Origin: an uncultured bacterium
GTDB taxonomy: Bacteria > Margulisbacteria > Termititenacia > CAZZFK01
Reading direction: 5' to 3'
Length of the DNA: 64,000 nt
NCBI GenBank assembly: GCA_964653455.1
Contig: CAZZFK010000001.1
Span: 158,179 to 222,178, forward strand
Under the pieces are notes generated by a model. It did not search any database. It worked only from the letters and a program-made list of their open reading frames with translations, and was not told the origin of the DNA. The translations under genes and the position numbers were made by a program. Shown piece by piece: positions 10,388-53,977 of this stretch. How positions within the stretch are numbered: position 1 is the first letter of the stretch; every line of letters begins with the position of its first letter.

Positions 10388-13246
10388 CTACTTCCCTCGC
10401 CGTACCATTGCATGCAACGATTGATACCAGGCCTTCCCCGTCCGCGTTCTTTTCATCTCAAGGTCTTTCACGACATTTTCCATCCATGGCCCGTACGCGA
10501 ACACGACCCGCTTAAAGATGTTCAGTACCTTATGCGCTTTACGTATCGGCAATTGTTCAGCGATATATTGTTCGTACTTTTCACGCTGATGATACGGTTC
10601 CAGGAAGATATTCAGGTCATGCACACTGTCTTTTGCTCGCTCCAGTATCTTTTTGAGCGCTGTCCTGCTCCGCGGATTTTCCCAGAGAATATCAACGATA
10701 TCGAGCAATCCTGTCATCCTCCTCCGCCCTGTCGCTTCATCATCGCCCTGGAGTTGCGTCTCAGGAACGATCTCTTTGAGCGTCGCATAATTGAGCTCAT
10801 ATTCTTTGCGGGACTTGACCGAACCCTCGATATATCCGCCTACGAGCTCGGACGCGATCTTTCCCATGAGCACCACAGATAGAGCGACCCCTGCCCAACC
10901 AAAAAGATAGGAAAGACCGAACGCGATCGGCCCCGCGATAAAACTTCTCATAAGATTCCGTCGCTTTACGTCCTGTGTGAAACCTCTCAATGAATTATGC
11001 GCATAGATGTACCCCCCATTGAGGGCCGCGAGGGCCACATAGTTCAGGAACCGCTTCGCCATCTCAACAGCAGCATGCTGCTGCGTTCGCAAATGCTCCG
11101 CGATATGTCCATGATACGCGGAGACGTACGCGATCATCTGGTCCATGCTCTGCTCGAGCAGAGCACCGTCAGTCGTGAGCACCATGGACTGAAAATAATG
11201 GTCCGCGATACGGAGCACCGGTATAGAAAGAAAACTGAAGAACATGGAGACCGCGGCATTATGCGGATCAAAATCCTTCATACGCCAATTAACCGGGTTC
11301 CAGCCGTTCTTAGCGACCAGATCCACGACCATATTACGTCCGTACGTGATAAAGAACCAGAACGCATGCACAGCTTCACCGTACGAGAACGCTGCCTTTC
11401 CACAATAGACCGCATATGAGACCGCAGTGCCTAACGTCATCACGATCACGTCTTTGACATGCATATTGAGATCGAACACATAGTCCCGCATCCGGCCGAA
11501 CGGGCCTGTGCGCAGGACATCTGACCGCAGCTGCAATTTCGCCTTCTCGCTCTTGCCCAAAGAGAGCACTACACCATGATCAGAGGACGATCTCACGGAC
11601 ACATGCCCGAGCAGACCGGTCAGTGCATCACGAGGACCCATTCTGAGACCGATCATATCAACGGCGTTCACACGAAGAAGTCGTCTCCAGCGGCGGACCT
11701 TCCTGCGGTCGGTGTACCCCATCCCAGGGACCTTATGGTTATGCCCGTCCGAATTACTGCCGATACGGGCCCGCAAGGGGACCTTCCTGAAATGCTCGGA
11801 GGCTTTCGCCAATTGATAGCGTCGTATATCCAGTTTTTCCCGCTCGACCAACCGCACGGCTTTCGTGACCTGACCCTCGTTCAAACATTCTCTGATCTTG
11901 TTGAGTAAAAGCATCTGTCGTATCAGCTCTGGTCCGGCCACACGATTATTCCATACTTCGATCGATGAGATATGTTCATGATATGTGGTCATATAGTCCA
12001 CTGCCGCTTCCAGACCATGGATAATGGACCTATTGAGAACAACATGTGCCCGGATCTCCTGACCTTCCTGGGAGACCGCATTGATACGTTCAAGAGCAGT
12101 GAAGGCGGTCTCCGGCAACATGAACCGCATGCTGTCCATCATCTTGAAATAGATACCATCAAAATATTTCTTTCTAAGATACACCTTATCCATGCGTTCA
12201 GGGAGCTTTTTACCGTTAATGAGAAAGAGCGCGGTCAAATGAGCGTGCAGATACCGACCGAGATGGACCTGAAACAACGGTTTCCCCTGGGCATAGGTAT
12301 ATAAATCCTCGAGGTCCAAAGACGGTATCGTGATCTGTTCATAGACCAGGTCGCTGTTCAAGACGGGCAGGACCTCCGCATTGAACCGCTCAATGAGACG
12401 AACGAACAACTGATCACGGGTCTTATTGTTCTTGCGAAGCGCCTGAGCGAACTGCTGCCAGGCTTTATCAGCAAAAAGTGCGTCATAATCCCCTATCGTG
12501 CGACAATGCTCGAACACGACGGTCTGATGATAGTATCGCCCGCCATAACTGACGACATATTCCAGGCCGCAATGGACCGTGATATCCAGGATAGCACCGG
12601 CACATACCACTTCATGAATAGCATCCCTATCCTCGAACGCATCAAATACGATCGTGAGCCCGGACAAGCCTTTGATATACGCGTCCAGAACGAGCTGTGC
12701 AGGCCGTTTGCGATCGATAGAGACATGATCGTCCCATGCGATACGTCCGGTCTTTTCCGGTATCTCGGCCATACCCAGGAGGGCGAGCGCACGGCGTACG
12801 GCAGGAGCTTTACCCGAAAGGGCACGCATGTAACAGTCGACCAGCCGGCATTGCCGTAAGATGTTCCCTTTTGCCTTCACACATTCTTTCATAAGGGCCA
12901 TCAGTACCGGAGGCGTGTTCAGCGGCATTTCCTTGCTGTTATAATTGCGACCTTCCTCCATCAGCCTTTTGAGCGCACGCAACCGCAGGTCAGGATCATT
13001 GGAGCGGATAGCGACATAGAGCAGTGCCATATCAAGGGGCTTTTCATAGACCACCTCTTTGAACCCGCGCACATGCCCTTCGAAGAAGAAATGGATATCG
13101 GCGATATCACGATCCAGTAGTTCGTTCAGCGTACGAACGGTCGCATATATCTCCGGGGAGAACGTGGTCGCGCGGCGCACACGGCCGGAAAATGTCATAT
13201 CCCGGACATGCTCAATGACCGCAGCGGCTACTATCTTGGCGAACAT
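10388..13246 (-). CDS. large uncharacterised protein (952 aa) with predicted transmembrane segments
   Basis: Long ORF; hydrophobic stretches (FIAGPIAFGLSYLFGWAGVALSVVLMG, MFFSFLSIPVL) towards the N-terminal third; no family recognised. Confidence 0.6.
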   Translation of the reverse strand: MFAKIVAAAVIEHVRDMTFSGRVRRATTFSPEIYATVRTLNELLDRDIADIHFFFEGHVRGFKEVVYEKPLDMALLYVAIRSNDPDLRLRALKRLMEEGRNYNSKEMPLNTPPVLMALMKECVKAKGNILRQCRLVDCYMRALSGKAPAVRRALALLGMAEIPEKTGRIAWDDHVSIDRKRPAQLVLDAYIKGLSGLTIVFDAFEDRDAIHEVVCAGAILDITVHCGLEYVVSYGGRYYHQTVVFEHCRTIGDYDALFADKAWQQFAQALRKNNKTRDQLFVRLIERFNAEVLPVLNSDLVYEQITIPSLDLEDLYTYAQGKPLFQVHLGRYLHAHLTALFLINGKKLPERMDKVYLRKKYFDGIYFKMMDSMRFMLPETAFTALERINAVSQEGQEIRAHVVLNRSIIHGLEAAVDYMTTYHEHISSIEVWNNRVAGPELIRQMLLLNKIRECLNEGQVTKAVRLVEREKLDIRRYQLAKASEHFRKVPLRARIGSNSDGHNHKVPGMGYTDRRKVRRWRRLLRVNAVDMIGLRMGPRDALTGLLGHVSVRSSSDHGVVLSLGKSEKAKLQLRSDVLRTGPFGRMRDYVFDLNMHVKDVIVMTLGTAVSYAVYCGKAAFSYGEAVHAFWFFITYGRNMVVDLVAKNGWNPVNWRMKDFDPHNAAVSMFFSFLSIPVLRIADHYFQSMVLTTDGALLEQSMDQMIAYVSAYHGHIAEHLRTQQHAAVEMAKRFLNYVALAALNGGYIYAHNSLRGFTQDVKRRNLMRSFIAGPIAFGLSYLFGWAGVALSVVLMGKIASELVGGYIEGSVKSRKEYELNYATLKEIVPETQLQGDDEATGRRRMTGLLDIVDILWENPRSRTALKKILERAKDSVHDLNIFLEPYHQREKYEQYIAEQLPIRKAHKVLNIFKRVVFAYGPWMENVVKDLEMKRTRTGKAWYQSLHAMVRRGK

Positions 13247-13394: not shown

Positions 13395-15521
13395 TCAATG
13401 TACGGGACTGGGGTCAATAGTGCTGTCGGCAGGGTATGTGTTATGGACCCGATATGACGAATACCCCTTGGTCCCTCTCATTTTATTCGCTCGTCGTTCA
13501 TTTTCCAGGATACGGGTAGCTTCTTGAATATCATGTGCAGCATCCTTGAGTACCATCAAGGAATCCTTTTGTATCTGATAGAGCACGTGCCGGGACCTTT
13601 TAAAAAGGGAGGGATATACATGATGCTCGATCGCCCATCGGTTCAGCTGCCTCAGCCGCGCAAGTTCATACTGCTCCCATCGGGCAGGGAAACGGTCCTG
13701 TTCATCCTTCTCGAGCCGACCGCGGACATATCCATACAATTCTGCCGCAAGACGGTCATGCATGACATGTTCTTCCGTTATACCAAGGAGAGAAAAGAGG
13801 TCGTTACGCGCTATCAGTTCATTGAGATTATCCCACGCAGAAAGCCCTGTTCGGGCGGATAATGACGGATACGTCCGCAATAAGAACTCCAATACCTCCT
13901 TAGCGTCCTGATTGCTGATATCCTCAATCCCGTATTTACCCAGGTCCATATCCCACGTCAGGAAATGCGGCCCGAGCCTAAAGGTCCTTTCTTGTTCCTC
14001 GATCCATTTTTTCTGTAAAGCTTGTACGGCCGCATCGATATCTCCGTTACAGGCATCAAATATCCTGCCGTACGTATCCATCGTATTCCTGTCATCGTCG
14101 ATCGAGGCCAGATACCGCAACGCCTCCGTGCGTTCTTGAACATCATGTTGTGCCCCATCACGACCGTCATGCCGAACGGCGAACTTCTTATCCACCTCAG
14201 CCAGAAGATCATCAAGGCTCGCCAACGGGGCATATGTAGGTTCAGGCTTTTTTTCTGACGGACGGTGAACAGGACCATCTTTCGAACTTCCGTCTTTCCG
14301 GTCACCTGAACCCTCTTCCCGAATGACCGCTGCGACACGCATCTTTTTTTTCTGCTCTTCAAGGAGCCTATCCCCTATCTGTTTATGTCTGTCCGATGTT
14401 CTCTGCATGCCGTCCTTGAGCCACTGCCGCACCTCCGCACTGACCGCATCAAAGATACCGCTCGCGGCCATATCCGCGTCGTTCGGCAAGAGATATATCT
14501 GTGTCCCGTTCTGATACCGCAAGAGCTTCTGACCGTTCTCCTGTAACATATGCCGATAGAACAGGACCGAGCGCTCGGTAGTGCCTATATCTTTCGCGAA
14601 TTGGCGCACACACTGGTACATGGTGCGCACCTGACCGCCCATATAACGGCCGCGCAGATATTTATCGAAATCATCAGGATATAATCTGGAGATACTTTCC
14701 GCCCTCTTCAGGTCCTTCATGATCTGCTGCGATATCTTTGCGGGAGCGGACGCATCGAGGTCCAGGCCTTTTGTCGAGAACACTTCTTTTTCCGTATACC
14801 CGCTCTTGGGGTTCTTTTGCAGCCCGAGCTCCAGAACGGACACTAACTTGACCGCATCGCCCACGGATAACGCGAGAGGATCATCAGCCTCTTCCTGCGG
14901 CCACATTTCTTCCAAGCTCTTGGCCTCTTCGGAACGAACGCCCAGTTTTTTAAGCGCATTGGCCTTGCGCTCGTCCTCACAAAATATCAATCTCACGACA
15001 TTCTGCTCTGCAGGATAACGGCATATATCCGACATATGATGTACGAACAAGAACTCAAAATAATACCTGTAGACCCCTGTTACCCCATGGGACTTAAAGA
15101 ACCGTTCTTTATCGGCCGAGAACACATATTCCTCGAACAGTTCTTTCAGGTCCCAGCGAAAAACATCGTCCAGGCAGACCTTCCGTGTCTTTCCCCCGCG
15201 CACTATCACCACCTCATCAAGAGGTGCGTGAGTATGAAATACCGAAGCGAGCAAATCCTTTTCTTTGATGCCTACGGGATGGGGGGACGTTCTGATGTGT
15301 TTCATCAATTCTTCAAAGATCTGTGTGCGCTCTTTTTCTTCCTGTATCTCTTTGAGGTCCAGTTTCTTGACGCCCGCTTTTGTATCCGTAACAAGCGCTC
15401 CGCCGGAAGCCGACCAGTCCAGCAGTTCTTTGCCTTTATCGTCCGATATCATTTTTTTATGCCACATGGCCATACCCCTTCTTCCTATATAGATATCGTA
15501 TTTTTTGGAAAAAACTCCCAT
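13395..15521 (-). CDS. uncharacterised protein, paralog A (708 aa), UBA-like motif
   Basis: Shares with the next gene the N-terminus MG..(D)(I/T)YI.R...M..WH.K..SD, YRYYFEFLFVHH, a GL..D/E..AP.I helix and a Lys/Arg/Pro-rich linker; YGRIFDACNGDIDAAVQAL resembles the UBA / EF-Ts N-terminal fold. Confidence 0.65.
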   Translation of the reverse strand: MGVFSKKYDIYIGRRGMAMWHKKMISDDKGKELLDWSASGGALVTDTKAGVKKLDLKEIQEEKERTQIFEELMKHIRTSPHPVGIKEKDLLASVFHTHAPLDEVVIVRGGKTRKVCLDDVFRWDLKELFEEYVFSADKERFFKSHGVTGVYRYYFEFLFVHHMSDICRYPAEQNVVRLIFCEDERKANALKKLGVRSEEAKSLEEMWPQEEADDPLALSVGDAVKLVSVLELGLQKNPKSGYTEKEVFSTKGLDLDASAPAKISQQIMKDLKRAESISRLYPDDFDKYLRGRYMGGQVRTMYQCVRQFAKDIGTTERSVLFYRHMLQENGQKLLRYQNGTQIYLLPNDADMAASGIFDAVSAEVRQWLKDGMQRTSDRHKQIGDRLLEEQKKKMRVAAVIREEGSGDRKDGSSKDGPVHRPSEKKPEPTYAPLASLDDLLAEVDKKFAVRHDGRDGAQHDVQERTEALRYLASIDDDRNTMDTYGRIFDACNGDIDAAVQALQKKWIEEQERTFRLGPHFLTWDMDLGKYGIEDISNQDAKEVLEFLLRTYPSLSARTGLSAWDNLNELIARNDLFSLLGITEEHVMHDRLAAELYGYVRGRLEKDEQDRFPARWEQYELARLRQLNRWAIEHHVYPSLFKRSRHVLYQIQKDSLMVLKDAAHDIQEATRILENERRANKMRGTKGYSSYRVHNTYPADSTIDPSPVH

Positions 15522-15582: not shown

Positions 15583-17424
15583 TCAGCCGAACATATCCTT
15601 CAGTTCCTGGGCATGTTTCTCATTGATCTCAGCGGCTTTACGTAATAATTCTTTCTTGGCGACCTCGAAGTTGCCTCCGTTCTCTTCCAGGACACTTTTA
15701 CATTGGTCCTTGTCAAAACCGGCCATCATCACTTCACGCAACAGGGTCAACTCGCGAACTTCCTTTGAATAGGATCGGAGCAGCTCGGAACGCCAGAGGA
15801 TATCTTCCTCTTTTTCGTTCAACGGGCGGCCAAGCAACAATATCTTTCTCGCTCGGCCGATACTATTGCCTGAACGTTCATACGCAGAGGAGCACTCATC
15901 CCAGGTCTTTTTCGTTTCATAACAAAGGCTGAAGATATCGTCCTTTATTTGCTGCTCAGCAGTGATCGCCGCACGTTTCAGCGCATCGTGCTTCCTATCC
16001 ACCTCTTCACAGATCTGTTCAAAACTCTTCCGGGGAGGGAATTCCACCGGCACATACTGTTTCCTTTGAGGGACTTCCGCTTTAGGCGACGAGACCTTTT
16101 TTGGCGGGATCACAGGGACAGGCCGTGTCTCAGATTCTCGCTTTCCCCGCATTTCCGTCTCGCGTTGTTTTTGCTTTGCTTCTTCAAGAGCGGCCATTTT
16201 ACGCCCCGCCGCCAATATCTCCTCATGTTCTTCATCGTTCTTCAGCTTCAACCAATCGATGACATCCATGATGCGCCGTTGGTTCACATCGTTCTTGTCT
16301 TTCCGCTGACGATGGAGCTCATCTTTCAGCCCGGACAACGCAGTGGGATTGTTCAGGACGATGTACATTTCGCCCCTGTCCTCATATATGAAGAATTTTA
16401 CGCCGTTATTCAAAAGGAGATACTTGACCGCCTCAATGGCTTTGACCGTGCATCCGAGCTCTTTGGCCAACCTCGATTCTTCTCCGCCATAGTCCTGGTC
16501 CAAAAGTTTTTTAAGGTCCTCAAAACGCTGATATTCATACTTGATCTTTTTGCGCTCATGAATGAGTTTACGTATCTGCGGTGCCGTCTCCCTGTTCAAC
16601 CCAAGAGCATTGAGGAGCGTACGCTCCGTATACCCTAACGGGTCCCTTCTGTTGCCTTTGTTCAATAACCCCAGAAGTTCTTCTTCTTTCTCATGAAATA
16701 TCTGGATCGTATCGATATTCTCGTATTCGAACGTATCATAACCGACCCACAGGGATTCCAGTTGCTGTGCGGCAATGGAATTCTTGCCCAATTTTGCTAC
16801 GGCAGCCTCTACCCTGTCCTGCAGGGAAGGAAGAATGAAGATCTCCCCGTTATGAGCATATCTGATGATCTTGAGCGGATGATTGGCGAACAGATAACTG
16901 AAGTAGTACTTATACTGCTCTTTGATGTTCGAATCGGAAAGGAATCGTCCGATATTGTTCACATATCTGCGGGAAAGCTGGACCATATCTTCGACCGAGA
17001 TATCCATTAAGGGTTTTACCTTGAAATCATTTGGCCCTGCGATCACATTATAGGGGACCTGCGGCACCTTGATAGTGAACGCTGCCGGATATCCGAGGAC
17101 CTCCAGCAAGCGTTTTTCCCGCACACCGAACACGTCCTTTTCCGTGCTTAATTCATGTACGATCTTCTTTCTCAGGTCCTCGAGGGCCCTCTCATCTTTC
17201 AATTCAGCGGGCGTTTTTTTAACTTCCTGTTTAACGTCAAAAGTATCATCCGCAGCGAACAACTGCAGGTCCATACGCAGCTCAATACGCTCGCCATTCT
17301 CTCCGACCGCATATACGGGCGTTCTCAGCCACGCAAGACAATCGGATAATAATTTATTATGCCACACGGACATACCTGTGCACCTCTGTATATAGGTATC
17401 GGAACCTCCTGAAGGTCGTCCCAT
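15583..17424 (-). CDS. uncharacterised protein, paralog B (613 aa), C-terminal UBA-like domain
   Basis: Paralogous to 13395..15521 (YKYYFSYLFANHP, LGCTVKAIEAVKYLLLNNG); C-terminal VMMAGFDKDQCKSVLEENGGNFEVAKKELL fits the UBA consensus (MGF ... NG.(V/F)E.A...LL). Confidence 0.65.
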   Translation of the reverse strand: MGRPSGGSDTYIQRCTGMSVWHNKLLSDCLAWLRTPVYAVGENGERIELRMDLQLFAADDTFDVKQEVKKTPAELKDERALEDLRKKIVHELSTEKDVFGVREKRLLEVLGYPAAFTIKVPQVPYNVIAGPNDFKVKPLMDISVEDMVQLSRRYVNNIGRFLSDSNIKEQYKYYFSYLFANHPLKIIRYAHNGEIFILPSLQDRVEAAVAKLGKNSIAAQQLESLWVGYDTFEYENIDTIQIFHEKEEELLGLLNKGNRRDPLGYTERTLLNALGLNRETAPQIRKLIHERKKIKYEYQRFEDLKKLLDQDYGGEESRLAKELGCTVKAIEAVKYLLLNNGVKFFIYEDRGEMYIVLNNPTALSGLKDELHRQRKDKNDVNQRRIMDVIDWLKLKNDEEHEEILAAGRKMAALEEAKQKQRETEMRGKRESETRPVPVIPPKKVSSPKAEVPQRKQYVPVEFPPRKSFEQICEEVDRKHDALKRAAITAEQQIKDDIFSLCYETKKTWDECSSAYERSGNSIGRARKILLLGRPLNEKEEDILWRSELLRSYSKEVRELTLLREVMMAGFDKDQCKSVLEENGGNFEVAKKELLRKAAEINEKHAQELKDMFG

Positions 17425-17524: not shown

Positions 17525-19126
17525 TTATTGCTTTTTTGGCTGCGTAACATCATATCCAAAATTATACATTTCTGACATCGTATACTGCAGGACCTTGATC
17601 GACGGTAACGCCAACCCGTCAATAACATAGGCCATCGCCGCACCACCGCCGGTGAGCAATATACTGTACTCTGTACTATGATCCAGCAATCTTGATTTCT
17701 TTATCGCCGAATCCGTATCACCGCCGCCTAAGATACCATACCCATGGGTGACCTCGGCAAAAGCTTTGATGATGGCATCGGTACCATGTGCGAACTGAGG
17801 ATTTTCGAACACACCCATAGGACCGTTAAAGAACCTGTACTCGGCAGCTTTGATCCTCTCCGCATATAATTCCTCGGACTCACGACCAATATCAAGATAG
17901 ATCTGGTCATCCGCGATCTCTTTGACATTATGAACATCTTTAATATGCTTCCCGCCGCCGAACACGTTCGGAAGCTCTGTCCAACTGACCGTGCGAAAAT
18001 CCTTGGGGATAATGATGTTCACGCCGTTCTGTTCCGCGGTCTCAAGGAGCTCTATTGCCGCACGGATGCCTGCCGGATCGAGCTTCTGCTTATCCCAGAC
18101 CGCCTGGGGGATACCTTGTGCAAGAGCCTCTTCAAGAGTAAGCCCTGGCACACCCACCTTCATGCCGCGTGCTTTCATGAAATATAACGCCATTTTTCCG
18201 CCGACACAGATATCCTTGATACCTTTATCGACAAAACTGCGCAAAATATCGATCTTTCCCATTTCTGCTCCGCCCGGATCACCCATGATCTTGGTCCCGC
18301 CTGAGACCACGACCGACCTTTCCGGATATTTCAGGAACGCATCATGGAGTACATGCAGTTTCGCACTGCTGTTCACAAAAGAATCCGAGGCCATGACCGG
18401 TTTGTGAAGCTTTTTCATGGCTGACACCAGAAAGTTATTCGACCATTGAACGCGATGGATGAAATCGAACCCGGCGTTCATATATACGTCCAGATAATCC
18501 AGCATCTTCGGGAAAAGGTTCTGGTTCTTTTTTTCCATCATCCGTTCTTTTTCATTGATGCGTATGTTCTGGAGCAGCAGTATTCTGATCTTCCCTTGCT
18601 TCACTTTCCTTAGCTTCCAGAGCGCTTCTATACCGGCAAATTTTTTGGATTTTACCCTGTCTATCTTGATAACACCTTTGCCGAATTCACGCTCCACTCT
18701 GTGCTTCATTTTCTCAAAGATCATTTTATTATCTTTGAAAGTAACACCCATGATATTGTTCTTGTCTTCAACGTGATAGATAAGCACTACGTTCATACCG
18801 GCCTCAACAGCCGTTCTGACATCAGTCCATGAAATATCCATGCGCTTTTCGCTATCCACTTCATAACCTTTTGCAAAGAATCTGAGGGATTGCTTCGCAA
18901 GCTTGAAAGTAAGGTTCCAGTCGACCCTGATGCCGATCGTTTTACCCTTCACCCATTCTCTGTTCATCAGAATAAAGTTCTTAAAGGTTCGGATACCGTT
19001 CTTGTTCAAATGATTCGGCTTGAGCCGGTCTACGCTCCTCATTAAGTTATGCGTTGTATAAATATTTGGCCTTTGCGGTACAACTAATTCCTGGACGAAT
19101 TCTATTACTTTCTTTGAATGATACAT
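17525..19126 (-). CDS. pgk: phosphoglycerate kinase-family protein with N-terminal extension
   Basis: C-terminal RFFNGPMGVFENPQFAHGT, ILGGGDT and LTGGGAAMAYVIDG are diagnostic PGK motifs; N-domain aligns (IRILLLQNIRINEKE, IHRVQWS) but SHLGRP is replaced by YHVEDK; AAAGGAG precedes the ATG at 19126. Confidence 0.7.
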   Translation of the reverse strand: MYHSKKVIEFVQELVVPQRPNIYTTHNLMRSVDRLKPNHLNKNGIRTFKNFILMNREWVKGKTIGIRVDWNLTFKLAKQSLRFFAKGYEVDSEKRMDISWTDVRTAVEAGMNVVLIYHVEDKNNIMGVTFKDNKMIFEKMKHRVEREFGKGVIKIDRVKSKKFAGIEALWKLRKVKQGKIRILLLQNIRINEKERMMEKKNQNLFPKMLDYLDVYMNAGFDFIHRVQWSNNFLVSAMKKLHKPVMASDSFVNSSAKLHVLHDAFLKYPERSVVVSGGTKIMGDPGGAEMGKIDILRSFVDKGIKDICVGGKMALYFMKARGMKVGVPGLTLEEALAQGIPQAVWDKQKLDPAGIRAAIELLETAEQNGVNIIIPKDFRTVSWTELPNVFGGGKHIKDVHNVKEIADDQIYLDIGRESEELYAERIKAAEYRFFNGPMGVFENPQFAHGTDAIIKAFAEVTHGYGILGGGDTDSAIKKSRLLDHSTEYSILLTGGGAAMAYVIDGLALPSIKVLQYTMSEMYNFGYDVTQPKKQ

Positions 19127-20244: not shown

Positions 20245-23200
20245 ATGTACAGACCTGCGAACCATAAGATCATAGCGGCGATCGAAGAGCCTGTCGTACG
20301 AGCTGGACGGCAAAGGACCGTCCTTGTCATAGATGATGAACCCGACATGTGCTCATTTTTAAGTAACGCGCTCATGGAATTCGGCTTTGCGGTCTTGACC
20401 GCACAAGACAGCGGACACGGACTTGAACTGTTCAAACAACACCGCCCGGACCTGATACTGCTCGACCTGAACTTCCCTCAGTATATGCCCTGCGGGGAGA
20501 ACATACTTAAGGAGGTCGTTTCTTTTGATCCCATCACTCCCGTTCTGATATTCACAGGAGCCCCGGTGACGCCGGAAATGGCCTCCGAGCTGACACTGAC
20601 CGGGGCCAAGGGATTCCTGACCAAACCGTTCAAGGACCTCAATGGACTGAGAATGATCATCAATGAACGCATCAAGGAAGCGGACAATATCCGGTTCATC
20701 AAACATACCGAAACAGTCGGATATCAGCGGATCTACCATGAACTGGTACGGAGCCAAAAAGAGTTCGAAGCGCTCGTCATGAACACCTCGACCTCCATAT
20801 TCGAATATGCGAACGGACATTTTGTTTTTTTAAATCCTTCGTTCGAAAAAGAGATCGGCTACCCTCTGAAGGACCTGCAAGAGCTGGACCTGCATACCTT
20901 CGTCCACCCCGACTCACACGCGGCCATTGATGAACATGTGAAGCATTGTTTTGACCATCCGTACCAGGAACATCGTACAGAGCTGAAGCTGATGACCAGC
21001 AGCGGCACCATCCGCTGGGTCAAAGTGGTCTCGATCGTGGTCGACCTGGACGATACGCCGACGCTCATCGGTTCTGCGAGCGATATCACTGTACGAAAAG
21101 AGGAGCTTCGCCGCATATCGATACTCGAATCGCTCTTTCGGGAGCATTTGAGGTCCATCCCGGTCGCAGAGATGCCTGAACTGATCGCCCGCACGCTCCT
21201 GGAGCTTTCATCTGCCTCCACGGTGGCCGTGAACATATTCGACCCGGACACCAAAGAGATGACAATTGCCAATATTTCCGGTAATGAGGACCTGCTCGAA
21301 CAGGTCTGGCAGGAATACCAGGTCCCGTTCGTGAAACGCGGACATCAATTCAAGATAGATGATCTCTCGATACAGGCTTTGCGCTCTGATACCCTGATCA
21401 CTATACCACAGGGGCTCTATACACTCTGGGGGAAGGCCGAACCAAAAACAACCTGCCTTGAAGTAGAAGAACGCTGCGGCATCAGGTCCGTCCTCACACA
21501 AGGACTGGTCAATGAAGGTAGGCTCATCGGCAATATCGTTATCATGGCCAGACAGGACCGGGATAACCCTCCGATGAACAAACCTCAGATCAGCATCATG
21601 ATCAGGCTTTTCGCGCTCATGTGGCAGGAACGGATAAAAACAGAACAGCTTTCGCTGAACGAACAGCGCTATCACGCGTTCTTTGATAATATCAGTGATG
21701 CAGCATTGACCCTTAACGCTGCCGGCAAGATAACAGATTGCAACGCTCAGACCGAGACACTGTTCAAATATCCCGCAGAGATGATCCTAAAGGACAGGCG
21801 TACATTATTGAACATCGCCGTACCAGTCACCCCTTCGGACCGGCAAGCGCTCAAGGATATGCGCAAGACCGCACACATGCGCGGTTCGGCGAACGGAGAA
21901 ATAAGGTACAAGAACGGTGACGGGGACATCATCGATACGTTCATCAAGATAAAGACCGACAGCCTCGGGAACCAGTACGTCCTGATCACGGACATCACCG
22001 AACAGAAACGCGCGGAATATCTCCGCGGACATGACGAAGCCACCGGACTCCCGAACTCTCAGAGCTTCCTGAAGGAGCTCGAACGCGCCTATCATGACCA
22101 TACCGTCTCCGGCAAGAACTTCGCGGTCCTGTCCCTGGTCGCCGACTGGGGGGAAATGGATGCGCTCAAATTACGGTATCAGGGACAGAACATCTCAGAG
22201 AAAACGCTCCTTCATCTTTCTCAGGAATTGACCAGGGTCCTCCCCAGCAACACTGTCCTTGCTCGTGGAAAAAAAGAGAACGAGTTCCTGTGCCTCTACC
22301 ATGGCCTACAGGACCCGAAGAACGACAAGCGATTCGAAGAGATATTGAACAAGCTTTCAATACCGATCACGCTCTATCGTTTGCCCCGGACCGAACACAT
22401 CACGTTCAGTATCGGCATCACGACATCGTTCGATCCCGTGCATGATCGTCCCGAGAACATACTCACCAACATGGATACGGCGCGGAAAAAACTGAAAGAT
22501 ATCAAGATCCCGGGCGAAACACATATCTCCTGGTATGACCCAACGCTCGACGAGCAGAACCGCTCTATCCAGGAAATACGCACGTACACCAAAGAGATCG
22601 CACAGAACGGGTTCAAGGATTGTTACCTTAAATACCAGCCTATCTGGGACCACCGGACAAAGACCATTCATGCTGTCGAAGTGCTCTTCCGCTGTGACGA
22701 TCCCAAGTTCAGCAAGAATATCGAGCTCCTGATAAAAATAGCAGAGGAGAACAAGGAGCGCATAACAGCTCTTGATGCCTGGGTCCTCGAACGGGCATGT
22801 ACCGAGGCGCGGGACTGGGGGAACACCAAGATATGTGTCAATGTATCACCTCTCGAACTTGATGAATATTTCCTTGACCGGGTCATCGCTATCACGGACC
22901 GTTGCCGATTCCCCAGACAACGGCTCATTTTTGAGGTCACAGAACGCAGCTTCGTTAATGCTCAAAGCATTGATATCCTTCGCGCACTGGTACGGAACGG
23001 TATCGAGCTATCCGTCGATGATTTCCTTTCAGGTAATGCCACGTTCCACAACGTGAGCTTGTATTCGGACTGTATCCATTACGTGAAACTCGATAAAGGG
23101 GTCGTGAACGACCTTGAGAATGCACATACATTGCCTGACCGGGGCAAAAGCATGCTCGGCATAACCGAAGGTATGATAGAAACGTTCCATACAAAAGTTG

Positions 23201-23361
23201 GACGGCTCATCAGGGTCATAGGGGAAGGGATCGATTCGGCGAACATCGTACAACTCCTGAAGAACATCGATGTGGACCTTATGCAGGGGTACTTTCTTGG
23301 CCGTCCGGAAAATGCTAAGACCTTCGCCAAACGTTTCAACAGGAAAAAACATGCGAAATAA
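20245..23361 (+). CDS. response-regulator receiver / PAS / degenerate GGDEF / EAL protein (probable c-di-GMP phosphodiesterase)
   Basis: N-terminal REC domain (VLVIDDEPDM ... PDLILLDLNFP); EAL motifs EVLFR, DDFLSGNATF, VKLDKG, GEGID...QGYFLGRPE; the GGDEF position reads KKENEF (degenerate). Confidence 0.8.
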   Translation: MYRPANHKIIAAIEEPVVRAGRQRTVLVIDDEPDMCSFLSNALMEFGFAVLTAQDSGHGLELFKQHRPDLILLDLNFPQYMPCGENILKEVVSFDPITPVLIFTGAPVTPEMASELTLTGAKGFLTKPFKDLNGLRMIINERIKEADNIRFIKHTETVGYQRIYHELVRSQKEFEALVMNTSTSIFEYANGHFVFLNPSFEKEIGYPLKDLQELDLHTFVHPDSHAAIDEHVKHCFDHPYQEHRTELKLMTSSGTIRWVKVVSIVVDLDDTPTLIGSASDITVRKEELRRISILESLFREHLRSIPVAEMPELIARTLLELSSASTVAVNIFDPDTKEMTIANISGNEDLLEQVWQEYQVPFVKRGHQFKIDDLSIQALRSDTLITIPQGLYTLWGKAEPKTTCLEVEERCGIRSVLTQGLVNEGRLIGNIVIMARQDRDNPPMNKPQISIMIRLFALMWQERIKTEQLSLNEQRYHAFFDNISDAALTLNAAGKITDCNAQTETLFKYPAEMILKDRRTLLNIAVPVTPSDRQALKDMRKTAHMRGSANGEIRYKNGDGDIIDTFIKIKTDSLGNQYVLITDITEQKRAEYLRGHDEATGLPNSQSFLKELERAYHDHTVSGKNFAVLSLVADWGEMDALKLRYQGQNISEKTLLHLSQELTRVLPSNTVLARGKKENEFLCLYHGLQDPKNDKRFEEILNKLSIPITLYRLPRTEHITFSIGITTSFDPVHDRPENILTNMDTARKKLKDIKIPGETHISWYDPTLDEQNRSIQEIRTYTKEIAQNGFKDCYLKYQPIWDHRTKTIHAVEVLFRCDDPKFSKNIELLIKIAEENKERITALDAWVLERACTEARDWGNTKICVNVSPLELDEYFLDRVIAITDRCRFPRQRLIFEVTERSFVNAQSIDILRALVRNGIELSVDDFLSGNATFHNVSLYSDCIHYVKLDKGVVNDLENAHTLPDRGKSMLGITEGMIETFHTKVGRLIRVIGEGIDSANIVQLLKNIDVDLMQGYFLGRPENAKTFAKRFNRKKHAK

Positions 23362-26300
23362 CAGGAACAGGCTCTTTCATTCCAAGATCATCGCAGATAT
23401 ACATCGCGAACTCTTTATGACCAAAGGGAAGTTGAACCTTTTGCGCCATCAGAACGAACGGCAGCGGAAGATCATCTCTGGCCACCAGATCTCGGAACAA
23501 AAGCTCAAAGAACAGGTGGTATCCCTGCGAGCACAGATCGAAACCCTGAGAACAGAGAATATTGTGCTTTCCAAGACCCATACAGAGCTCAAAGAATGCC
23601 AGCTGACCATGCACGAAATGACCCAGAACCTGCGGGACATGATCACGTTCACCGACCTCACGGGCCGTATCACGTACAATTCTCCGGTCATTCGCGAGTT
23701 CCTCGGGTACGATCCGGAATATCTCAACGGCCTTTCGATTTTCGACCTCATACACCCTGACGATCGCCAGCACTCGCTCCGGGAGTTCAATGAAGCGATC
23801 GCACAACGTCAACCCCGGACGGCCATCATACGTTTCAGACACAAGGACGGACACTACCTGTGGCTTGAATCGAGCGGCAATTATATCCCTGACGACGCCG
23901 GCGGTATCAGCAAGCTCATCTTCTCGAGCCGGGACATCAGTGAAAGGCTCTCGCTTTATGAAATGATCGGCAAACAACAGCAGCTCCTTCAGATGATCAC
24001 GGAGAACATGCGGGACATGCTCTCCGTTGTCACCCCGGACCTTCGGTTCACCTATGTGAGCGCCTCGAATTTCAAGGTGCTCGGCTATGCTCCGAAGGAC
24101 CTGACCGGGATCTCACTGCTCTCTATCCTTCACCCCGACGACGCGCATAACGTGGCACAGCTCTTCTCCCTGCTCCGCCAGACCGGCATGGAAGAGACCG
24201 CCACAGAGGTCCGTTGCAGAAGATCGGACGGCAGTTATCTCTGGGTGGAGACCGTGATCAACGTGGTATTCAGCACACCGGGGACCATAGAACATATCAT
24301 CCTCTCGAGCAGAGAATGTACAGAACGTAAACGGATCGAGGCCGAACTTGAACTGGAACGCTACTACAGCCGTGAGATCATAGATAAGAACATCATCCCG
24401 TTCTTCGAGATCGACCTGGACGGCTATATGCACGATGCCAATCAGGCAATGGCGGACATGCTGGGTCGTCCGCTGCATGAGCTCAAACCGCGCCCGATCC
24501 CACTTGAGGCCATACAAAAGGCCATCGGACGTTCCGGTATCCGCTGGGAGGACCTTGTCTCCATGGACAAGAACAATACGTTCATTTTCAAGAAGAACAG
24601 CCTCTCCTCGATCTGCAACACTGCCCCTGATTCAGCTGAACGAAAAGCATTGCTCTCTCTCATCAGATCTTCTTTTGGACCGAAATATTCCGATCTTGTC
24701 GGACCAAAACATGCACGAACATCCTGGAACGCGTTCAAAGAGGTCTTTGAAACCAAACGGTCCCGTTCGACATATGACCTGCCCATTACCGGCAAAGATG
24801 AACGGATCGGGGAGACCTCTATAAATCTTCGCTATGAGAACGAGCGGATCATCGGCTACTTCGGCTTCATCCGGGACGTCACCGAGATACGTAAGACCGA
24901 GCAGGAAAAACAGATGGTGGCACATATCATCTCCAATACCGTGGACAGGACGGATACGATCGTATACCAGCTCGACAGAGACGGATATATGACATACACG
25001 AACAACGCCATCCATAAAAGAAGAGCGAAAGAGCTCGAAATGCTCAAGACCGATCACAAACGACTGCATTATCTGGAGTTCGTTGTCCCTGAATACCGTG
25101 CGTTCGTCAGGGACCATTATGAAAAACTACTGGCCGAGCACGCTCTCCTGCTAAAAAACAACCCGCACGTTCGGGCCGCCGACATCCCCCCTCTGTCGCC
25201 GTTCCTGGAGTTCCCTGTCCAGATCGGAGAGAGCACCCTCTGGATCTCACAAGCTATCACTGTCGAGCTCGATGAAACCACACGGGAGATCACGCGCGTG
25301 AACGCAATAGCACATAATATCACTGACCGAAAACTCGCGGAGCTCGAAAGAGAAAAAGCAGACAAACAAAAAGAACGGGCGGAACAAGAGCTCCGCAACA
25401 GCCATGAACAGATGAAAAAAGTGCTTGATCAGCTCCATGAAGCAGCGATCATTCAGGGAAGCGACGGGATCACGCTCATCAACGAAGCGTTCGCGAACAT
25501 GGTCGGACTGACAAAAAAAGATATTCTCGGCTCCCATCCTGTCGAATACGTACCAGAAGATTTCATTCCGGCCTTTTTGGACCAATACATACCCGGCACG
25601 TCCCCGATCCCTGAAGAAATGACACTGCTCAGTACCACTAAAGGCACCATCCCGGTCAAGCCCAGCCACTCACTGCTGACCGAAGGCCAACAGACCGATG
25701 AACCATTACATCTATGGACGTTCCTTGATCTGACCGAACGTAAAGAAAGGATCAACAGTGCTCTCCGTGATGAACTGACCGGTCTTCCGCAAAGAGGATT
25801 GTTCAAGGAATATTTCATGAACGCCGTCGCAGAAGCAAAACGGGCCAAGAACGCAGGGCTCCCGTATTTCATTTCCATGTTCTTCATCGACATCAATAAG
25901 TTCAAAGAATATAACGATAAGCTCGGATACTATGAAGGCGGAGATCCGGCCATTAAGACCGCCGGAAGGATAGCCAGCCAGTGCATGCGGGAGACCGACC
26001 ACTTCGCACGCTGGGGTGGGGATGAGTTCATCGGACTGCTGGAGAATATCGACGGAGGAACGGAGAACGTGCTTCAAAAGATCATGGCCAGTGCGCTCGT
26101 GAAGGACCTCCGGTTCAGCATCGGAGTGTATCATGATGACCTGACCGCTCTTGACCTTTCAGACCAGAACAAGCTTTTTGATGAATGTATCAGAAAGATA
26201 ACCATAGCGGAAGAAAAAGCAAAACAACTGAGCGCCCTTCACCCTGTCTCCGTGACGATCAACGACAAGACCCTGAATCTGACAGATAATTATTGTTATT

Positions 26301-37949: not shown

Positions 37950-38083
37950 AGGAAAAGTATAGCATCGTAGTAAAGGGGCTGTCCTTGCCTGTACCCCCCT
38001 GAGCTGAATACTGTTTTCTGGGCTAGCATGCGCAAAACAGGTGCCAGACACCAACCAAGCCAAGCCCCACTTCTCTATATCAC

Positions 38084-39011: not shown

Positions 39012-40766
39012 TCATTCAGTTTCTACTTGTGAATTAAAATTCTTTAGCATATTCTGAACCTGTTCCCAATTACTTTCCGACGCGGTATACCTTTTGTCAT
39101 GAACAATCAGTTCTTCACCATATAATTTCTCAAGTATATACGCAACAGACTTAGTAATAGACCAAGCCAAGACCTCATCAGGCTTTTCTCCCAAACAATA
39201 CTTTTTGACATCCTCTTTTGAAACATTAATTAATATTTTCCCGGTGTAGCTAAGATAGCGGTATTTTTCTTTATCCATTATACAACCCGGAAAATTCGCA
39301 TGCTTCAATGTATTATGAATTTTCCGAACATCGTGCGCATTAGCAAATACCTTTTCGTCCATTCCACTCCACAAGCAACTCTTTTTAAGGCTGTTCAACA
39401 ATAGAAAATATTCACACTCATCCATACTCTCCGTTTTCTTCTCTACCTCTATCTTATCCTTATCCACTATCATAAAACTGTCCTTACCGGAGCTAACCAA
39501 AAGCGATCGATATTTTTTGCGAACAGCCTGCTCGGCCAAGGAACACCCCAGGCTACAAGCAGACTCATATTTCCCAATAAAATAACAAAAATACATTTCA
39601 TCTAACAATTTCCCCAGACGGGGATCTCCAATACTATTATCCGAATCGTCCTTTAATTCATACCTATTCCCATACTTTTCTAATCTCAGAAGACATTCTT
39701 GCTGCTTCTGCTCAGTAAAGAAATGCTGAGATAATTCAGATTCAACTTTGCTCTTTTGATCAAATTGAAGTTCTCTAATTTTTCTAGTATCAGCCAAAGC
39801 TTTTTCTATCTCGCCTCTTTCCCGATACAACTCAGCTCTAGCTTCTATAGCTGCTATAAAATTACCGTTAATCGCTATTGCTTTATTAAAGGCATCAAGC
39901 GCATCCTCAATATTACCAAAACTCTGGTCCTCTAGCCCGATGAAATAATAAGCATATTCATTATCTGGATTGAGCTCCAGAGCTTTCTCATAAGATGGAA
40001 ATCCATGACATTGGCTAGTATCGGAGCAGAAGAATACTATCGCATTCGACAATTCATTCTTATATTCAGGGCAGAGATCAGCCAAATTGTCTATCTGCAG
40101 CTCAAACTCCTCAAATAAAGCACTTATATCGACTGCAAGGTCTATCCAATCAAAAGCATCCATCATCGGAGTTTTAAGCACCTCAATATAATCATCAAGA
40201 GCTTCTTTATGCTTAGCTTGCTTCATCCTTGCATGGCCACGAAAGAAACATATATGACACCTAGGCGATGAATAACCAACCACTTTTAACTCTGAACGCT
40301 CTCTTTTATCCATATAGACAGAACAAGCTTTCTCCAATGCCGGATAGTCTTCCAATGCGAAATTAATCTGACACACGCGCCAATATACTTTCTCATCGAT
40401 ATCATTGCGACCACTCTCAAGAACCTTTTTATAGTCTTTAAGTGCATTTTCATAATCGGCGTTGTTAAAATACAAATCACCTCTATCATTATGAATAATA
40501 TCCTCATAACATCGCTTCAACCCATTTACCTCTGCAGGAAAGCGCTCAACAATATCCAATGCTTTTTTATAATCCTCAAACATTTGCTGAACTGCATCAG
40601 GATGATTTAACTTCTCTGTCGCCCATGCTCGCCACATATACGCTTGCGGAAGATAGATAGAGGTATCATTATTAGCAGTTTTTATTATTTCACTTAATAA
40701 ATCAAAGGCTTCTTGATATTTACCCTTATCATATAATTCAATACCAGCATTAATTTTTTCTTTCAT
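39012..40766 (-). CDS. TPR-repeat protein with uncharacterised C-terminal domain
   Basis: Repeated 34-residue units with the W/LG/Y/A/F/AP TPR pattern (KGKYQEAFDLL, YENALKDYKKVLE, ALDAFNKAIAINGNF); last ~230 aa have no recognised motif; AT-rich gene. Confidence 0.7.
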   Translation of the reverse strand: MKEKINAGIELYDKGKYQEAFDLLSEIIKTANNDTSIYLPQAYMWRAWATEKLNHPDAVQQMFEDYKKALDIVERFPAEVNGLKRCYEDIIHNDRGDLYFNNADYENALKDYKKVLESGRNDIDEKVYWRVCQINFALEDYPALEKACSVYMDKRERSELKVVGYSSPRCHICFFRGHARMKQAKHKEALDDYIEVLKTPMMDAFDWIDLAVDISALFEEFELQIDNLADLCPEYKNELSNAIVFFCSDTSQCHGFPSYEKALELNPDNEYAYYFIGLEDQSFGNIEDALDAFNKAIAINGNFIAAIEARAELYRERGEIEKALADTRKIRELQFDQKSKVESELSQHFFTEQKQQECLLRLEKYGNRYELKDDSDNSIGDPRLGKLLDEMYFCYFIGKYESACSLGCSLAEQAVRKKYRSLLVSSGKDSFMIVDKDKIEVEKKTESMDECEYFLLLNSLKKSCLWSGMDEKVFANAHDVRKIHNTLKHANFPGCIMDKEKYRYLSYTGKILINVSKEDVKKYCLGEKPDEVLAWSITKSVAYILEKLYGEELIVHDKRYTASESNWEQVQNMLKNFNSQVETE

Positions 40767-40809: not shown

Positions 40810-42237
40810 TCAAGAATTATCTTCATCCTGCCCTTTCTCGCCATATGCATCATAAAAATACCTGAACGCCACCTTCGCATTTGTAGTATCTTTATGATAT
40901 CTATTTGCCATTCTTTGCTTTAATACCTGCAGAATCGTACCGCAGCCCGGCTGATACTTCGACTTGCCGGAAAGCAACTTAATGACCTCTTCCGCGAGAG
41001 CGCTCCTGAGCTCCGTATTCATTTCTTTGCCAGCCCTATTCCCCTCCATCTGCTCTATCACATGATTGATCGTTTTCTCGGGATCCTTTTCATACTCATA
41101 AAAATACTTTTCCGCCTCAACTTCATTACTCCTGATGCTTGTCAGCTGTGCTTCATAATTATCTTTCATCTTGCTCACAACACTAAAGATCCGCTCCGTA
41201 AGCTCCCGGGGAGCATAGGCCGTTACATCCCCGCCCCAACCCAATATCCATTTTTCTAATGCATATTTATCCGCCAAAGTATCCCATTCAAAATCATTAA
41301 AAAAGAACTTTGCTTTTATATTGGAAGGGAGCATCGCAGCTTCTTGTATGACATTCCTGAAAAGTTCTTTTTTCCATATCCCTTTCGAATAAATGGCACT
41401 ATTGGCAAAGGTCTTCATTTCATACAGGTAGGGGGCGATCTTCGGGGATATCCGCACCTCCACAGATCTGCTGCTTTTCCTTTTTTGGGCATTTAAAAAC
41501 CTCTTTAATTCCTTACTCCTTGGTTTAAATTTCTTGTGCAGCTGCCGCATGCTCTTTATTCTGGCCAAAGCTAAAAGAACAAAGCCAGTCCGTGTTTTAT
41601 CCAGGCAATACGCCAATACATACCAGCGATAGTTGTTATACACAAAAACGTATGGCTCGATGACTTTTTCTTCCGCAACGAACTTATTATCCTGGAGTTT
41701 CGTGTACGTATAATATTCAATTTTCAGTGAAGTCTTCGCTTCGATCGCCGCATCAATACGTTCAAATACGTCCGAAAATGCAAAATCACAATAAGGAATA
41801 TGCCCGATAAAATATCTGGCCATAGTCTTCTTTGTATCGAGCTTGTGCTGCCCCATATTCGCCTTAATGATCTTTGCGACGGCAGACTTAAAATGGGTCT
41901 TGAGAGGCGTGCCTTCAAAAGAAGGCAGGAATCTTTCTGCTACAAGTAAAGCTTCTGCTTCCTTAGGAGATAGCGAAAAAGCACCCTTTGCTAAACGAAC
42001 AGGGTTAGTGAAGTAATACGTAGATTTCCCTTCTTTTTCAACCCTGACCATATCTTCTTCCATGAGCTTTTTCAGATTACGGTCTAATGTTCGTTGGGGA
42101 ATATGAAGATTATTCAGCAAATATTGTCGTGATAGTTTGTTCTTGATCAAAAGATCTTTATCTTTATCTAAATACTCTCGCGTTGTCAGCTCAATATAAT
42201 CTGTAAGGTATTTAATAGCTTTCACTTGCTTGCGCAT
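40810..42237 (-). CDS. WYL-domain transcriptional regulator with N-terminal HTH
   Basis: N-terminal winged-helix segment and a central WYL domain (EPYVFVYNNYRWYVLAYCLDKTRTGFVLLALARIKSM); about 230-aa C-terminal extension; AT-rich gene. Confidence 0.7.
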   Translation of the reverse strand: MRKQVKAIKYLTDYIELTTREYLDKDKDLLIKNKLSRQYLLNNLHIPQRTLDRNLKKLMEEDMVRVEKEGKSTYYFTNPVRLAKGAFSLSPKEAEALLVAERFLPSFEGTPLKTHFKSAVAKIIKANMGQHKLDTKKTMARYFIGHIPYCDFAFSDVFERIDAAIEAKTSLKIEYYTYTKLQDNKFVAEEKVIEPYVFVYNNYRWYVLAYCLDKTRTGFVLLALARIKSMRQLHKKFKPRSKELKRFLNAQKRKSSRSVEVRISPKIAPYLYEMKTFANSAIYSKGIWKKELFRNVIQEAAMLPSNIKAKFFFNDFEWDTLADKYALEKWILGWGGDVTAYAPRELTERIFSVVSKMKDNYEAQLTSIRSNEVEAEKYFYEYEKDPEKTINHVIEQMEGNRAGKEMNTELRSALAEEVIKLLSGKSKYQPGCGTILQVLKQRMANRYHKDTTNAKVAFRYFYDAYGEKGQDEDNS

Positions 42238-52102: not shown

Positions 52103-53977
52103 CTATTTTTTATTTCGTTTCAGCGGGATCAGGGATAAGAAAGGCCCGACCATAAATGAAACAGAAGCAACAATGAATATCGGAGCAAAAGGAAGCATGA
52201 ACGATATAGAGAACAGAACCCCGCCAAAGATCAGTTCTTTATAATGCTTTTTTACCACATCAATGAACGGATTTTTTGTTTGTATCTTACCCTTTGGAGT
52301 AACGTGAAATATCGTATCTGAAGAAAACCCCTCAAAAACACCTTTCGCAATAGACAGTCCTGCACTGATAAAACCAAGGAACGCAGGGATTATGAATACA
52401 ATACTTTGAAATGCCTGCTTGATCTTTTTACTCATTACAAGATTTATAAAATCCATGCCTATTATACCAAGAAAAGCATGCCCAAAAGGCCTACTATATT
52501 GATAGATAGAATTGACCAATGAAAAGTCAGCATGAGATTGTAGTCCAATGATGCCAGTAACACTTAAGATGAGCGGGGCAATCGCAAACATATAGGCAGA
52601 GAGCGGATAATATGAAAACCGATAACACATGTCCGCTTTTTCATTCCAAGGAATATGCTTTGCATGAACAAAAGATGGCATTATCCTTCGAAGGGATTCG
52701 ACCCCTCCTTTAGCCCAACGTTTTTGCTGTACTTTAAAACGATCAAGATCCTCCGGTGAATGATCGACCACATGTACATAAGAGATCCGTTTACCTTTAT
52801 CCCAATAAGAGTGTTCCGCCCGCAACGATAGTCCCGTTGCCCAATCCTCCCCAACAAAATCTTCTTTCCATCCTCCAACGTCTTCAAAAGCGGCCTTTTG
52901 ATACAAAATAGCATAACCTCCTGAAGTTGCATGACCTATCCTTTCAACAGTATGCGTCAATTTTGACCTTGCACGATTTAATGCCGCAATAGGTTGATTG
53001 AATAAATTGTCATCACCCTTATCATCCACATCATAAACCAAGAACGGAAGTTTCTGATTATCCCTGAACTCCGGAACTGACTTTTTCAAGAGATCAGGCG
53101 CAAACTCTATATCACAATCGATCTGAAGAAATAGATTACCCTTCGGCCGATAAAAAACATTATCCGCATAAGATCGTAGTCCCAAGCTTATGTTCAAATT
53201 CCTTGCCTTACCACCCTCTTTGCCGTCACGATGAATAAAGGTAATACCATATTCAGTACAATAGGCCTCTAGTTCCGGCTTCCGAACACCATTAGAAAGA
53301 ACAACAATATCAAGCTTATCTTTCGGGTAATCCACCTCCAAAGCACTCCTGAGGGATGTACTCTTCAATAGCTCTAAAGGTTCATTATATGTAGGAATGG
53401 TTATTGTCACATGCGGCAGGTCTTTTTCTTGCATCGGGAGCGGCTCACATTCAGGACCTCTGAATAGCCCGACCATATTTGCAACAATACTCGTACTAAA
53501 GAATGGTATCGCAGCAAATAGATAAAAACTAGAGACTACCATGCTTGTAATGCCTGCCGATATTTCCGAAAGTGAGAACATATTCTTTATAAGCGGCGCA
53601 ACGGAATAAATATAGTACGCACTGGCCGCTCCATAGGTCAGTATTATCGATGACCATGCCTTTTTTTCCGTGCTTTCGAACATGGCCCTGTAGCAATGTT
53701 CAAAAACACTTTTTGATAGTTCTTTGACCATCAACTTCGCATTATGCATTGACCGAGAGATCGGATTTAGATCTATCTGAGGGAAAAGGGAAAAATCGTT
53801 CTGAAGCTGCATGCCATCACCGCTAAAAGCCAGGTTCTGTTTGAAAAAGATATTATCAATAGATGAAATGACCGCATCTGTATAGGGTCTTACCTGAACA
53901 GGGCTGGCATCCTTCTTTAAAAAGGATATATCTTTTACAGGATCATCGAACCCCATTATCTTTGTATGCCTGAACAT
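52103..53977 (-). CDS. family 2 processive glycosyltransferase (cellulose/chitin/hyaluronan synthase-like), membrane-bound
   Basis: GT2 motifs DCD (LQIDCDIEF), GED (FVGEDWATG) and Q..RW (VQQKRWAKGG) with N- and C-terminal TM helices; gene is AT-rich. Confidence 0.7.
   Translation of the reverse strand: MFRHTKIMGFDDPVKDISFLKKDASPVQVRPYTDAVISSIDNIFFKQNLAFSGDGMQLQNDFSLFPQIDLNPISRSMHNAKLMVKELSKSVFEHCYRAMFESTEKKAWSSIILTYGAASAYYIYSVAPLIKNMFSLSEISAGITSMVVSSFYLFAAIPFFSTSIVANMVGLFRGPECEPLPMQEKDLPHVTITIPTYNEPLELLKSTSLRSALEVDYPKDKLDIVVLSNGVRKPELEAYCTEYGITFIHRDGKEGGKARNLNISLGLRSYADNVFYRPKGNLFLQIDCDIEFAPDLLKKSVPEFRDNQKLPFLVYDVDDKGDDNLFNQPIAALNRARSKLTHTVERIGHATSGGYAILYQKAAFEDVGGWKEDFVGEDWATGLSLRAEHSYWDKGKRISYVHVVDHSPEDLDRFKVQQKRWAKGGVESLRRIMPSFVHAKHIPWNEKADMCYRFSYYPLSAYMFAIAPLILSVTGIIGLQSHADFSLVNSIYQYSRPFGHAFLGIIGMDFINLVMSKKIKQAFQSIVFIIPAFLGFISAGLSIAKGVFEGFSSDTIFHVTPKGKIQTKNPFIDVVKKHYKELIFGGVLFSISFMLPFAPIFIVASVSFMVGPFLSLIPLKRNKK

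Follow-up and report, generated by a model that had tools for sequence, protein, structure and literature searches.

The C-terminal tail of paralog B, one of two related proteins (A and B) encoded by neighbouring genes on the minus strand of a 64,000-nucleotide stretch of DNA from an uncultured bacterium of the Margulisbacteria (termed here the window), is examined for its resemblance to the UBA domain and to the bacterial representative of the UBA fold, the N-terminal domain of elongation factor Ts (EF-Ts; the domain is termed TS-N). Paralog B ends in two tandem units of ~64 residues that derive from an internal duplication. The last of these units is tentatively read as a small three-helix interaction or self-association module of UBA/TS-N type, tethered by a linker and preceded by a decayed copy of itself. 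A ubiquitin-binding role for the tail is not implied by this reading.

From this perspective, paralog B would be a lineage-specific cytoplasmic protein consisting of three parts: (i) an N-terminal region of ~380 residues that is common to paralog A, (ii) a charged, Pro/Lys-rich flexible linker, which is probably disordered, and (iii) two tandem helical units of ~64 residues, the first of which would have decayed since the duplication. The last unit (residues ~554-602) may fold as a small three-helix bundle, in which helix 1 (...LLREVMMA), a GFDK loop, helix 2 (DQCKSVLEE), an NGGN loop and helix 3 (FEVAKKELL...) follow one another, and would serve as a tethered module for protein-protein interaction or self-association. 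The TS-N domain of EF-Ts binds EF-Tu, and other domains with the UBA fold are likewise interaction modules.

Profile matches to the tail of paralog B

Translation of positions 15586-15735 (minus strand) yields EVMMAGFDKDQCKSVLEENGGNFEVAKKELLRKAAEINEKHAQELKDMFG, which corresponds to residues 564-613 of paralog B and which opens with EVMMAGFDKDQCKSVLEENGGNFEVAKKELL. Because residue 613 directly precedes the stop codon, this segment is the true C-terminus of the protein, which is where the original prediction had located a UBA-like motif.

The models of the UBA and UBA-like clan that were tested (PF00627, PF14555, PF22566 and PF02845) have Pfam gathering scores of 22.4 bits for UBA (PF00627), 26 bits for UBA_8, 21.8 bits for UBA_4 and 21.1 bits for CUE. 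When full-length paralog B is compared with Pfam, UBA is matched with E = 0.014 (15.6 bits), with UBA_8 and UBA_4 behind it and with all of these matches at residues 566-589. For a 67-residue fragment comprising the tail, UBA is the top-ranked family (E = 0.002, 18.3 bits), followed by UBA_8 (E = 0.0056, 16.8 bits), UBA_4 (E = 0.01, 16.0 bits) and CUE (E = 0.01, 15.9 bits). Within NCBIfam, the EF-Ts model TIGR00116 aligns its TS-N part (profile positions 11-53) with residues 561-605 (E = 0.0095, 15.2 bits). Among PDB sequences, the UBA domain of TDRD3 is found with E = 0.23 through an ungapped alignment that retains G-F, L, N-G-N, E-A and LL, and a profile constructed from the two B units places the UBA domains of RAD23A and TDRD3 near the top of the list (E ~ 0.4).

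As a control, 79 fragments of equal length were taken from domain-less open reading frames (ORFs) of the window, namely paralog A, the rest of paralog B, and ORFs of 952, 501 and 222 residues. The best E values that these fragments attain for any family are 0.0047 in Pfam and 0.0055 in NCBIfam, in each case for one single unrelated family. The B tail is the best-scoring fragment, with a margin over the controls of only about 2-8 fold, and it alone among the ~80 fragments attracts several related models, in two libraries. Judged by sequence, its resemblance to UBA is suggestive, not significant. The original claim that the tail fits the UBA consensus thus survives in part: UBA/TS-N is the top Pfam family, and four UBA-clan models together with the N-terminus of EF-Ts are matched, all of them below threshold; the search against UBA, CUE and EF-Ts N-terminal models that had been proposed as a check returned no match at or above a curated cut-off, either for the tail or for full-length paralog B.

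The features that the tail has in common with UBA domains such as those of TDRD3 and RAD23A include a helix-loop-helix-loop-helix arrangement of ~45 residues, G-F in loop 1, N-G in loop 2, and [F/L]-E-x-A...LL in helix 3, as well as a C-terminal location behind a flexible linker and an occurrence in tandem. With TS-N it has in common the pattern CK..LEE.GG..E.A, in which the spacing from the loop-1 Gly to the conserved Cys/Lys is presumably two residues longer than in EF-Ts. Unlike EF-Ts itself, paralog B matches only the 40-residue subdomain (15.2 bits versus a TIGR00116 cut-off of 104.05 bits), and the rest of the EF-Ts architecture is absent.

Internal duplication and predicted structure

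The duplication is evident from an alignment of DECSSAYERSGNSIGRARKILL-LGRPLNEK (unit 1, residues 508-538) with DQCKSVLEENGGNFEVAKKELLRKAAEINEK (unit 2, residues 573-603), which scores 47, compared with 23 ± 4 for shuffled sequences; 10 out of 20,000 shuffles reach a score of 47 (p ~ 5e-4). Unit 1 retains the D, C, S, E, G, A, K and LL of unit 2 and has lost the G-F loop; searched alone, it matches no profile. An assignment of unit 1, or of the motif in paralog A that is described below, to the TPR repeats was considered and rejected: the only match spans 17 residues of a designed consensus-TPR protein (E = 0.0014 for four repeats summed), there is no TPR match in Pfam, and the repeat period in paralog B is ~64 residues, not 34.

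Because no alignment could be built, structures were predicted with AlphaFold from single sequences. A 153-residue model (residues 461-613), with a predicted local distance difference test score (pLDDT) of 74, contains helices at residues 468-504, 508-516, 522-525, 537-567, 572-581 and 586-612. A fold search with this model returns only long-helix and coiled-coil proteins and is uninformative; for this reason a 55-residue model (residues 549-603) was made, for which the pLDDT is 83 and the predicted template-modelling score (pTM) is 0.56. Its three helices (Table 1), which agree with the expectation expressed earlier for the last ~50 residues, are separated by four-residue loops at AGFD and NGGN, precisely where loops 1 and 2 of a UBA domain belong, and the helix boundaries flanking these loops are the same in both models. 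The predicted layout is that of the UBA clan: ~40-45 residues, three helices, x-G-[FY] in loop 1 and a second loop that precedes [hydrophobic]-E-x-A. It is the only one of the UBA characteristics tested that the tail exhibits, and its family membership is not established. A Foldseek search with the 55-residue model gives 24 matches, five of which are of UBA type, including the topmost, the UBA domain of FAM100B (E = 0.86).

Evidence against a UBA-type fold and competing readings

Observations of several kinds weigh against a UBA/TS-N-type module. All of the profile scores of the tail lie under the curated cut-offs (for UBA, 18.3 versus 22.4 bits); the Pfam alignment is limited to profile positions ~12-33, that is, to helix 2, the loop and the start of helix 3, so that helix 1 is uncovered; loop 1 reads A-G-F, not M-G-F/Y; and chance alone would yield about one match as strong as these across all proteins of the 64-kb window. 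No collection that was searched contains an orthologue, and repeat unit 1 is the sole sequence with which the core positions can be compared. The longer model gives helix 1 a length of 31 residues and helix 3 a length of 27, far in excess of those in UBA domains. Nothing that Foldseek finds with the 55-residue model is significant: the UBA-type matches have E values of at least 0.86 and root-mean-square deviations (rmsd) of 9-10 Å, and homeodomains and the helix-turn-helix (HTH) domains of small terminases superpose better, with template-modelling (TM) scores of 0.5-0.6 and an rmsd of 2.6-5 Å. UBA-type helix packing, with UBA, CUE or TS-N domains as the closest structural neighbours, was thus not found. 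Finally, two NCBIfam equivalog models for the regulator CueR align residues 550-611 with CueR positions 37-101 at E = 0.00066 and E = 0.0041, and the search of PDB sequences puts residues 37-101 of E. coli CueR (E = 0.022) ahead of the TDRD3 UBA domain.

This last match raises the question of whether the tail stems from a fragment of a MerR/CueR-type regulator, comprising helices α3 and α4 and the start of the α5 dimerisation helix, and works in dimerisation. The alignment, which extends over 62 residues and includes a G-F hairpin followed by a long helix, shows an identical ELTLLR block and similar L.K.AEI..H..EL blocks in the PDB comparison, and the best NCBIfam E value among the controls was 0.0055. 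Yet the broad Pfam models MerR, MerR_1 and MerR-DNA-bind fail to match the full protein or its fragments even at E ≤ 10; the two CueR models nearly duplicate each other and stand for a single narrow family; a three-residue deletion is required exactly within the α4-α5 loop; the α1-α2 HTH of MerR is absent; paralog B, whose end aligns with CueR residue ~101, stops before the metal-binding cysteines of CueR; and the CueR match vanishes when the two-unit profile of paralog B is used. For these reasons descent from CueR is ranked below the UBA/TS-N reading and is considered improbable. Membership in the MerR/CueR family proper is rejected: the two equivalog models give 19.8 versus 244 bits and 17.2 versus 147.4 bits, and the N-terminal winged HTH, the metal-binding loop and any general MerR match in Pfam are lacking. 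Nevertheless, a CueR alternative that is equally strong implies that the pattern in the B tail carries little information.

Another reading is that the tail harbours no discrete homologous domain and is an amphipathic helical or coiled-coil extension, with a low-information pattern (hydrophobic-x-x-G-[ND]-x-[DE]-x-A-x-x-LL) that resembles UBA, CueR and TPR by chance. The weak best answers do differ from one search to another (Pfam favours the UBA clan, NCBIfam and the PDB favour CueR, unit 1 gives a designed TPR, and the two-unit profile a designed ankyrin); E ~ 0.005 is attained by control fragments from these proteins and E = 0.001, for COMMD9_HN, by one that is longer; and the longer AlphaFold model has helices of 27-37 residues, for which the fold search returns coiled-coil-like proteins only. 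What makes this reading rather unlikely is that the B tail is the sole fragment, among ~80, to draw several related models in two libraries, that the two short loops are consistently predicted at Gly-containing positions, and that the 55-residue model is compact enough to attain its pTM.

The Foldseek ranking, in which the best TM scores and rmsd values go to homeodomains and small-terminase HTH domains, fits a further reading: the repeated unit may be a generic or HTH-like three-helix element, duplicated but unrelated to UBA, that binds nucleic acids or serves as a structural repeat and in which the UBA pattern is convergent, being that of a widespread helix-turn-helix hairpin. Its tandem duplication is compatible with this, as is the winged-helix-like character of a duplicated helix-plus-hairpin motif in the N-terminal region (see below), and pertinent comparators exist among tandem three-helix repeat or tri-helical HTH proteins (RecX, the C-terminal domain of LuxR/DesR, and region 4 of sigma-70). 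On the other hand, neither the tail nor any other fragment matches an HTH family of Pfam or NCBIfam, even at E ≤ 10; the putative recognition helix is equally acidic and basic; and the four-residue NGGN loop with its flanks, as read from the sequence, is unlike the classical HTH turn. The segment is, moreover, neutral to acidic, with an isoelectric point (pI) of 5.4-6.2 that sets it apart from typical HTH domains that bind DNA. An HTH-like unit is therefore regarded as unlikely, albeit a serious competitor. Both the charge of the segment and the placement of the module at the extreme C-terminus, behind a linker, support the tentatively preferred UBA/TS-N type.

Paralog A, genomic context and implications

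Proteins A and B, which are 26% identical across residues 1-478 of B (E = 5e-26), are true paralogs; their similarity is detectable up to a common EVD[RK]K motif located just beyond the charged linker. The database copy of paralog B begins at M18 and is 596 residues long. A weaker UBA-like motif had also been proposed for paralog A, at 14050-14115. The motif exists, at a site ~40 nucleotides from the one proposed (Table 1), but its likeness to UBA lacks profile support: YGRIFDACNGDIDAAVQAL matches no UBA-type model in searches of Pfam, NCBIfam and PDB sequences, it has no significant similarity to either repeat unit of B, and the two-unit profile of B finds nothing in paralog A.

Table 1. Positions of the features of paralogs A and B within the window, and of genes in its low-GC patches
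Feature	Position	Strand	Remarks
Paralog A ORF	13395..15521	-	708 residues; database copies start at M17 or M19; orphan protein
Paralog A motif YGRIFDACNGDIDAAVQAL	14016..14072	-	Residues 484-502; pattern likeness only, without statistical support
Paralog B ORF	15583..17424	-	613 residues from first ATG; orphan protein
B N-terminal region, conserved with paralog A	16285..17424	-	Holds internal duplication, residues 158-203 and 318-360
B charged Pro/Lys-rich linker	16015..16284	-	Residues ~381-470; pI 9.5; 9 Pro; grand average of hydropathy -1.2
B repeat unit 1	15781..15972	-	Residues 485-548; no profile match alone
B repeat unit 2 core, UBA/TS-N-like three-helix segment	15619..15765	-	Residues 554-602, KEVRELTLLREVMMAGFDKDQCKSVLEENGGNFEVAKKELLRKAAEINE; predicted helices 554-567, 572-581, 586-602
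Stretch matched by Pfam UBA, UBA_8, UBA_4 and CUE	15658..15726	-	Residues 567-589: helix 2, NGGN loop, start of helix 3
TPR protein	39012..40766		Low-GC patch
WYL/WCX-domain protein	40810..42237		Low-GC patch
Family-2 glycosyltransferase	52103..53977		Low-GC patch

The N-terminal region of both paralogs contains a duplication of its own, consisting of a ~45-residue helix plus a β-hairpin-like segment (window positions 16345-16950 for B). In B the copies occupy the residues given in Table 1; in A they occupy residues 140-185 and 304-350. None of 20,000 shuffles equals the similarity between B 158-203 and A 304-350, and 13 of 20,000 equal that between B 176-197 and B 334-355. The repeats conform to the pattern ...FAKD.G......Y..L..NG.K..RY..G.IY.LP, which reads like a helix-turn-helix plus wing, that is, like two winged-helix modules; no Pfam or PDB sequence match supports such a reading.

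At their 5' ends (~17360-17424 for B and ~15460-15521 for A, minus strand) the two genes are far more alike in DNA sequence than elsewhere: AAATGGGA...CGATAYCTATATA...GGTATGKCCRTGTGGCATAA is common to both, with synonymous positions conserved as well. The upstream ATG of each ORF has no Shine-Dalgarno sequence, and the aligned codons M18 (B) and M17/M19 (A) are preceded by Shine-Dalgarno-like sequences. A conserved N-terminal peptide (MG....D.YI.R..GM..WH.K..SD) may account for the similarity, or else a promoter or operator common to the two genes.

Both paralogs are orphans. A word-indexed search of 5.8 billion clusters, with A, B and the 67-residue tail as queries, finds no homologue besides A and B, and an exhaustive HMMER search of 1.84 billion representatives with an A+B profile returns these two alone. 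Scans of genomes, metagenomes and viral contigs for relatives yield nothing; searches of NCBIfam, PADLOC and PHROGs with the full-length proteins yield nothing meaningful; and searches of PDB sequences with the full-length proteins and with the A+B profile are empty. Orphan families are commonplace in candidate-phylum genomes. Identical genes and sequence are present in the Logan assemblies of SRR10083292-94; the source genome itself is absent from the GTDB species representatives that were covered.

The neighbouring genes encode ordinary housekeeping and signaling functions: prfC, EF-P, a methyltransferase, Ppx/GppA, PP2C, a pseudouridine synthase, SufBD, PFK, PPDK, HydF, components of type II secretion or type IV pilus systems, and two large PAS/GGDEF/EAL proteins. 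The prfC product is 63-68% identical to those of metagenome-assembled genomes of Marinamargulisbacteria/Margulisiibacteriota and ~55% identical to any other sequence; at their own prfC loci, the closest such genomes show no synteny and harbour no relatives of A, B or the 952-residue neighbour. The fraction of G+C (GC) around A and B is 0.48-0.50, near the window average, and no defence-system or phage family in PADLOC or PHROGs is matched. This neighbourhood gives no sign of an island, of an effector locus or of genes related to ubiquitin. The suggestion that the tail may indicate ubiquitin-like or host-interaction biology accordingly finds no echo in the surroundings or composition of the genes. 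That A and B constitute a new lineage-restricted family in which B, as an effector or adaptor without a described counterpart, binds ubiquitin or a ubiquitin-like modifier, either from a host or from a bacterial ubiquitin-like system as yet unrecognised, through tandem eukaryote-like UBA domains is deemed exceedingly improbable.

Other features of the window are recorded here as observations in their own right. Immediately upstream of B (17525-19126, minus strand) lies a phosphoglycerate kinase-like ORF of 533 residues, ~135 more than usual (PF00162, E = 1.3e-55), which is only ~26-28% identical to the phosphoglycerate kinase match among the loci examined and forms a singleton cluster. Downstream of A (10388-13246, minus strand) lies the 952-residue ORF, with hydrophobic segments in its C-terminal half; it is likewise a singleton cluster, and matches nothing in Pfam, NCBIfam, PADLOC or PHROGs. 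Together with A and B, these make up four same-strand genes in a row beside prfC that are lineage-specific or divergent. Two patches, at 38000-42000 and 52000-54000, have a GC of 0.39-0.41, versus ~0.51 elsewhere, and a strong negative GC skew, and may be acquired DNA. On the plus strand, at 20245-26422, two adjacent ORFs of ~1040 residues overlap by ~90 nucleotides, one with receiver-PAS-GGDEF-EAL matches and the other with multi-PAS plus GGDEF matches; the organism therefore appears to have elaborate cyclic di-GMP signaling.

More generally, the B tail illustrates how sub-threshold matches can seem to 'confirm' a short motif spotted by hand when two further libraries and a fold search point elsewhere; because of that disagreement the tail should neither be annotated as UBA nor be used to draw conclusions regarding ubiquitin or a host. 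If the last unit does have a UBA/TS-N fold, it would extend by one the bacterial occurrences of this small interaction module apart from EF-Ts, which would be useful for annotation and unsurprising, and it would offer a first clue to the function of an orphan family of two members in a poorly known phylum.
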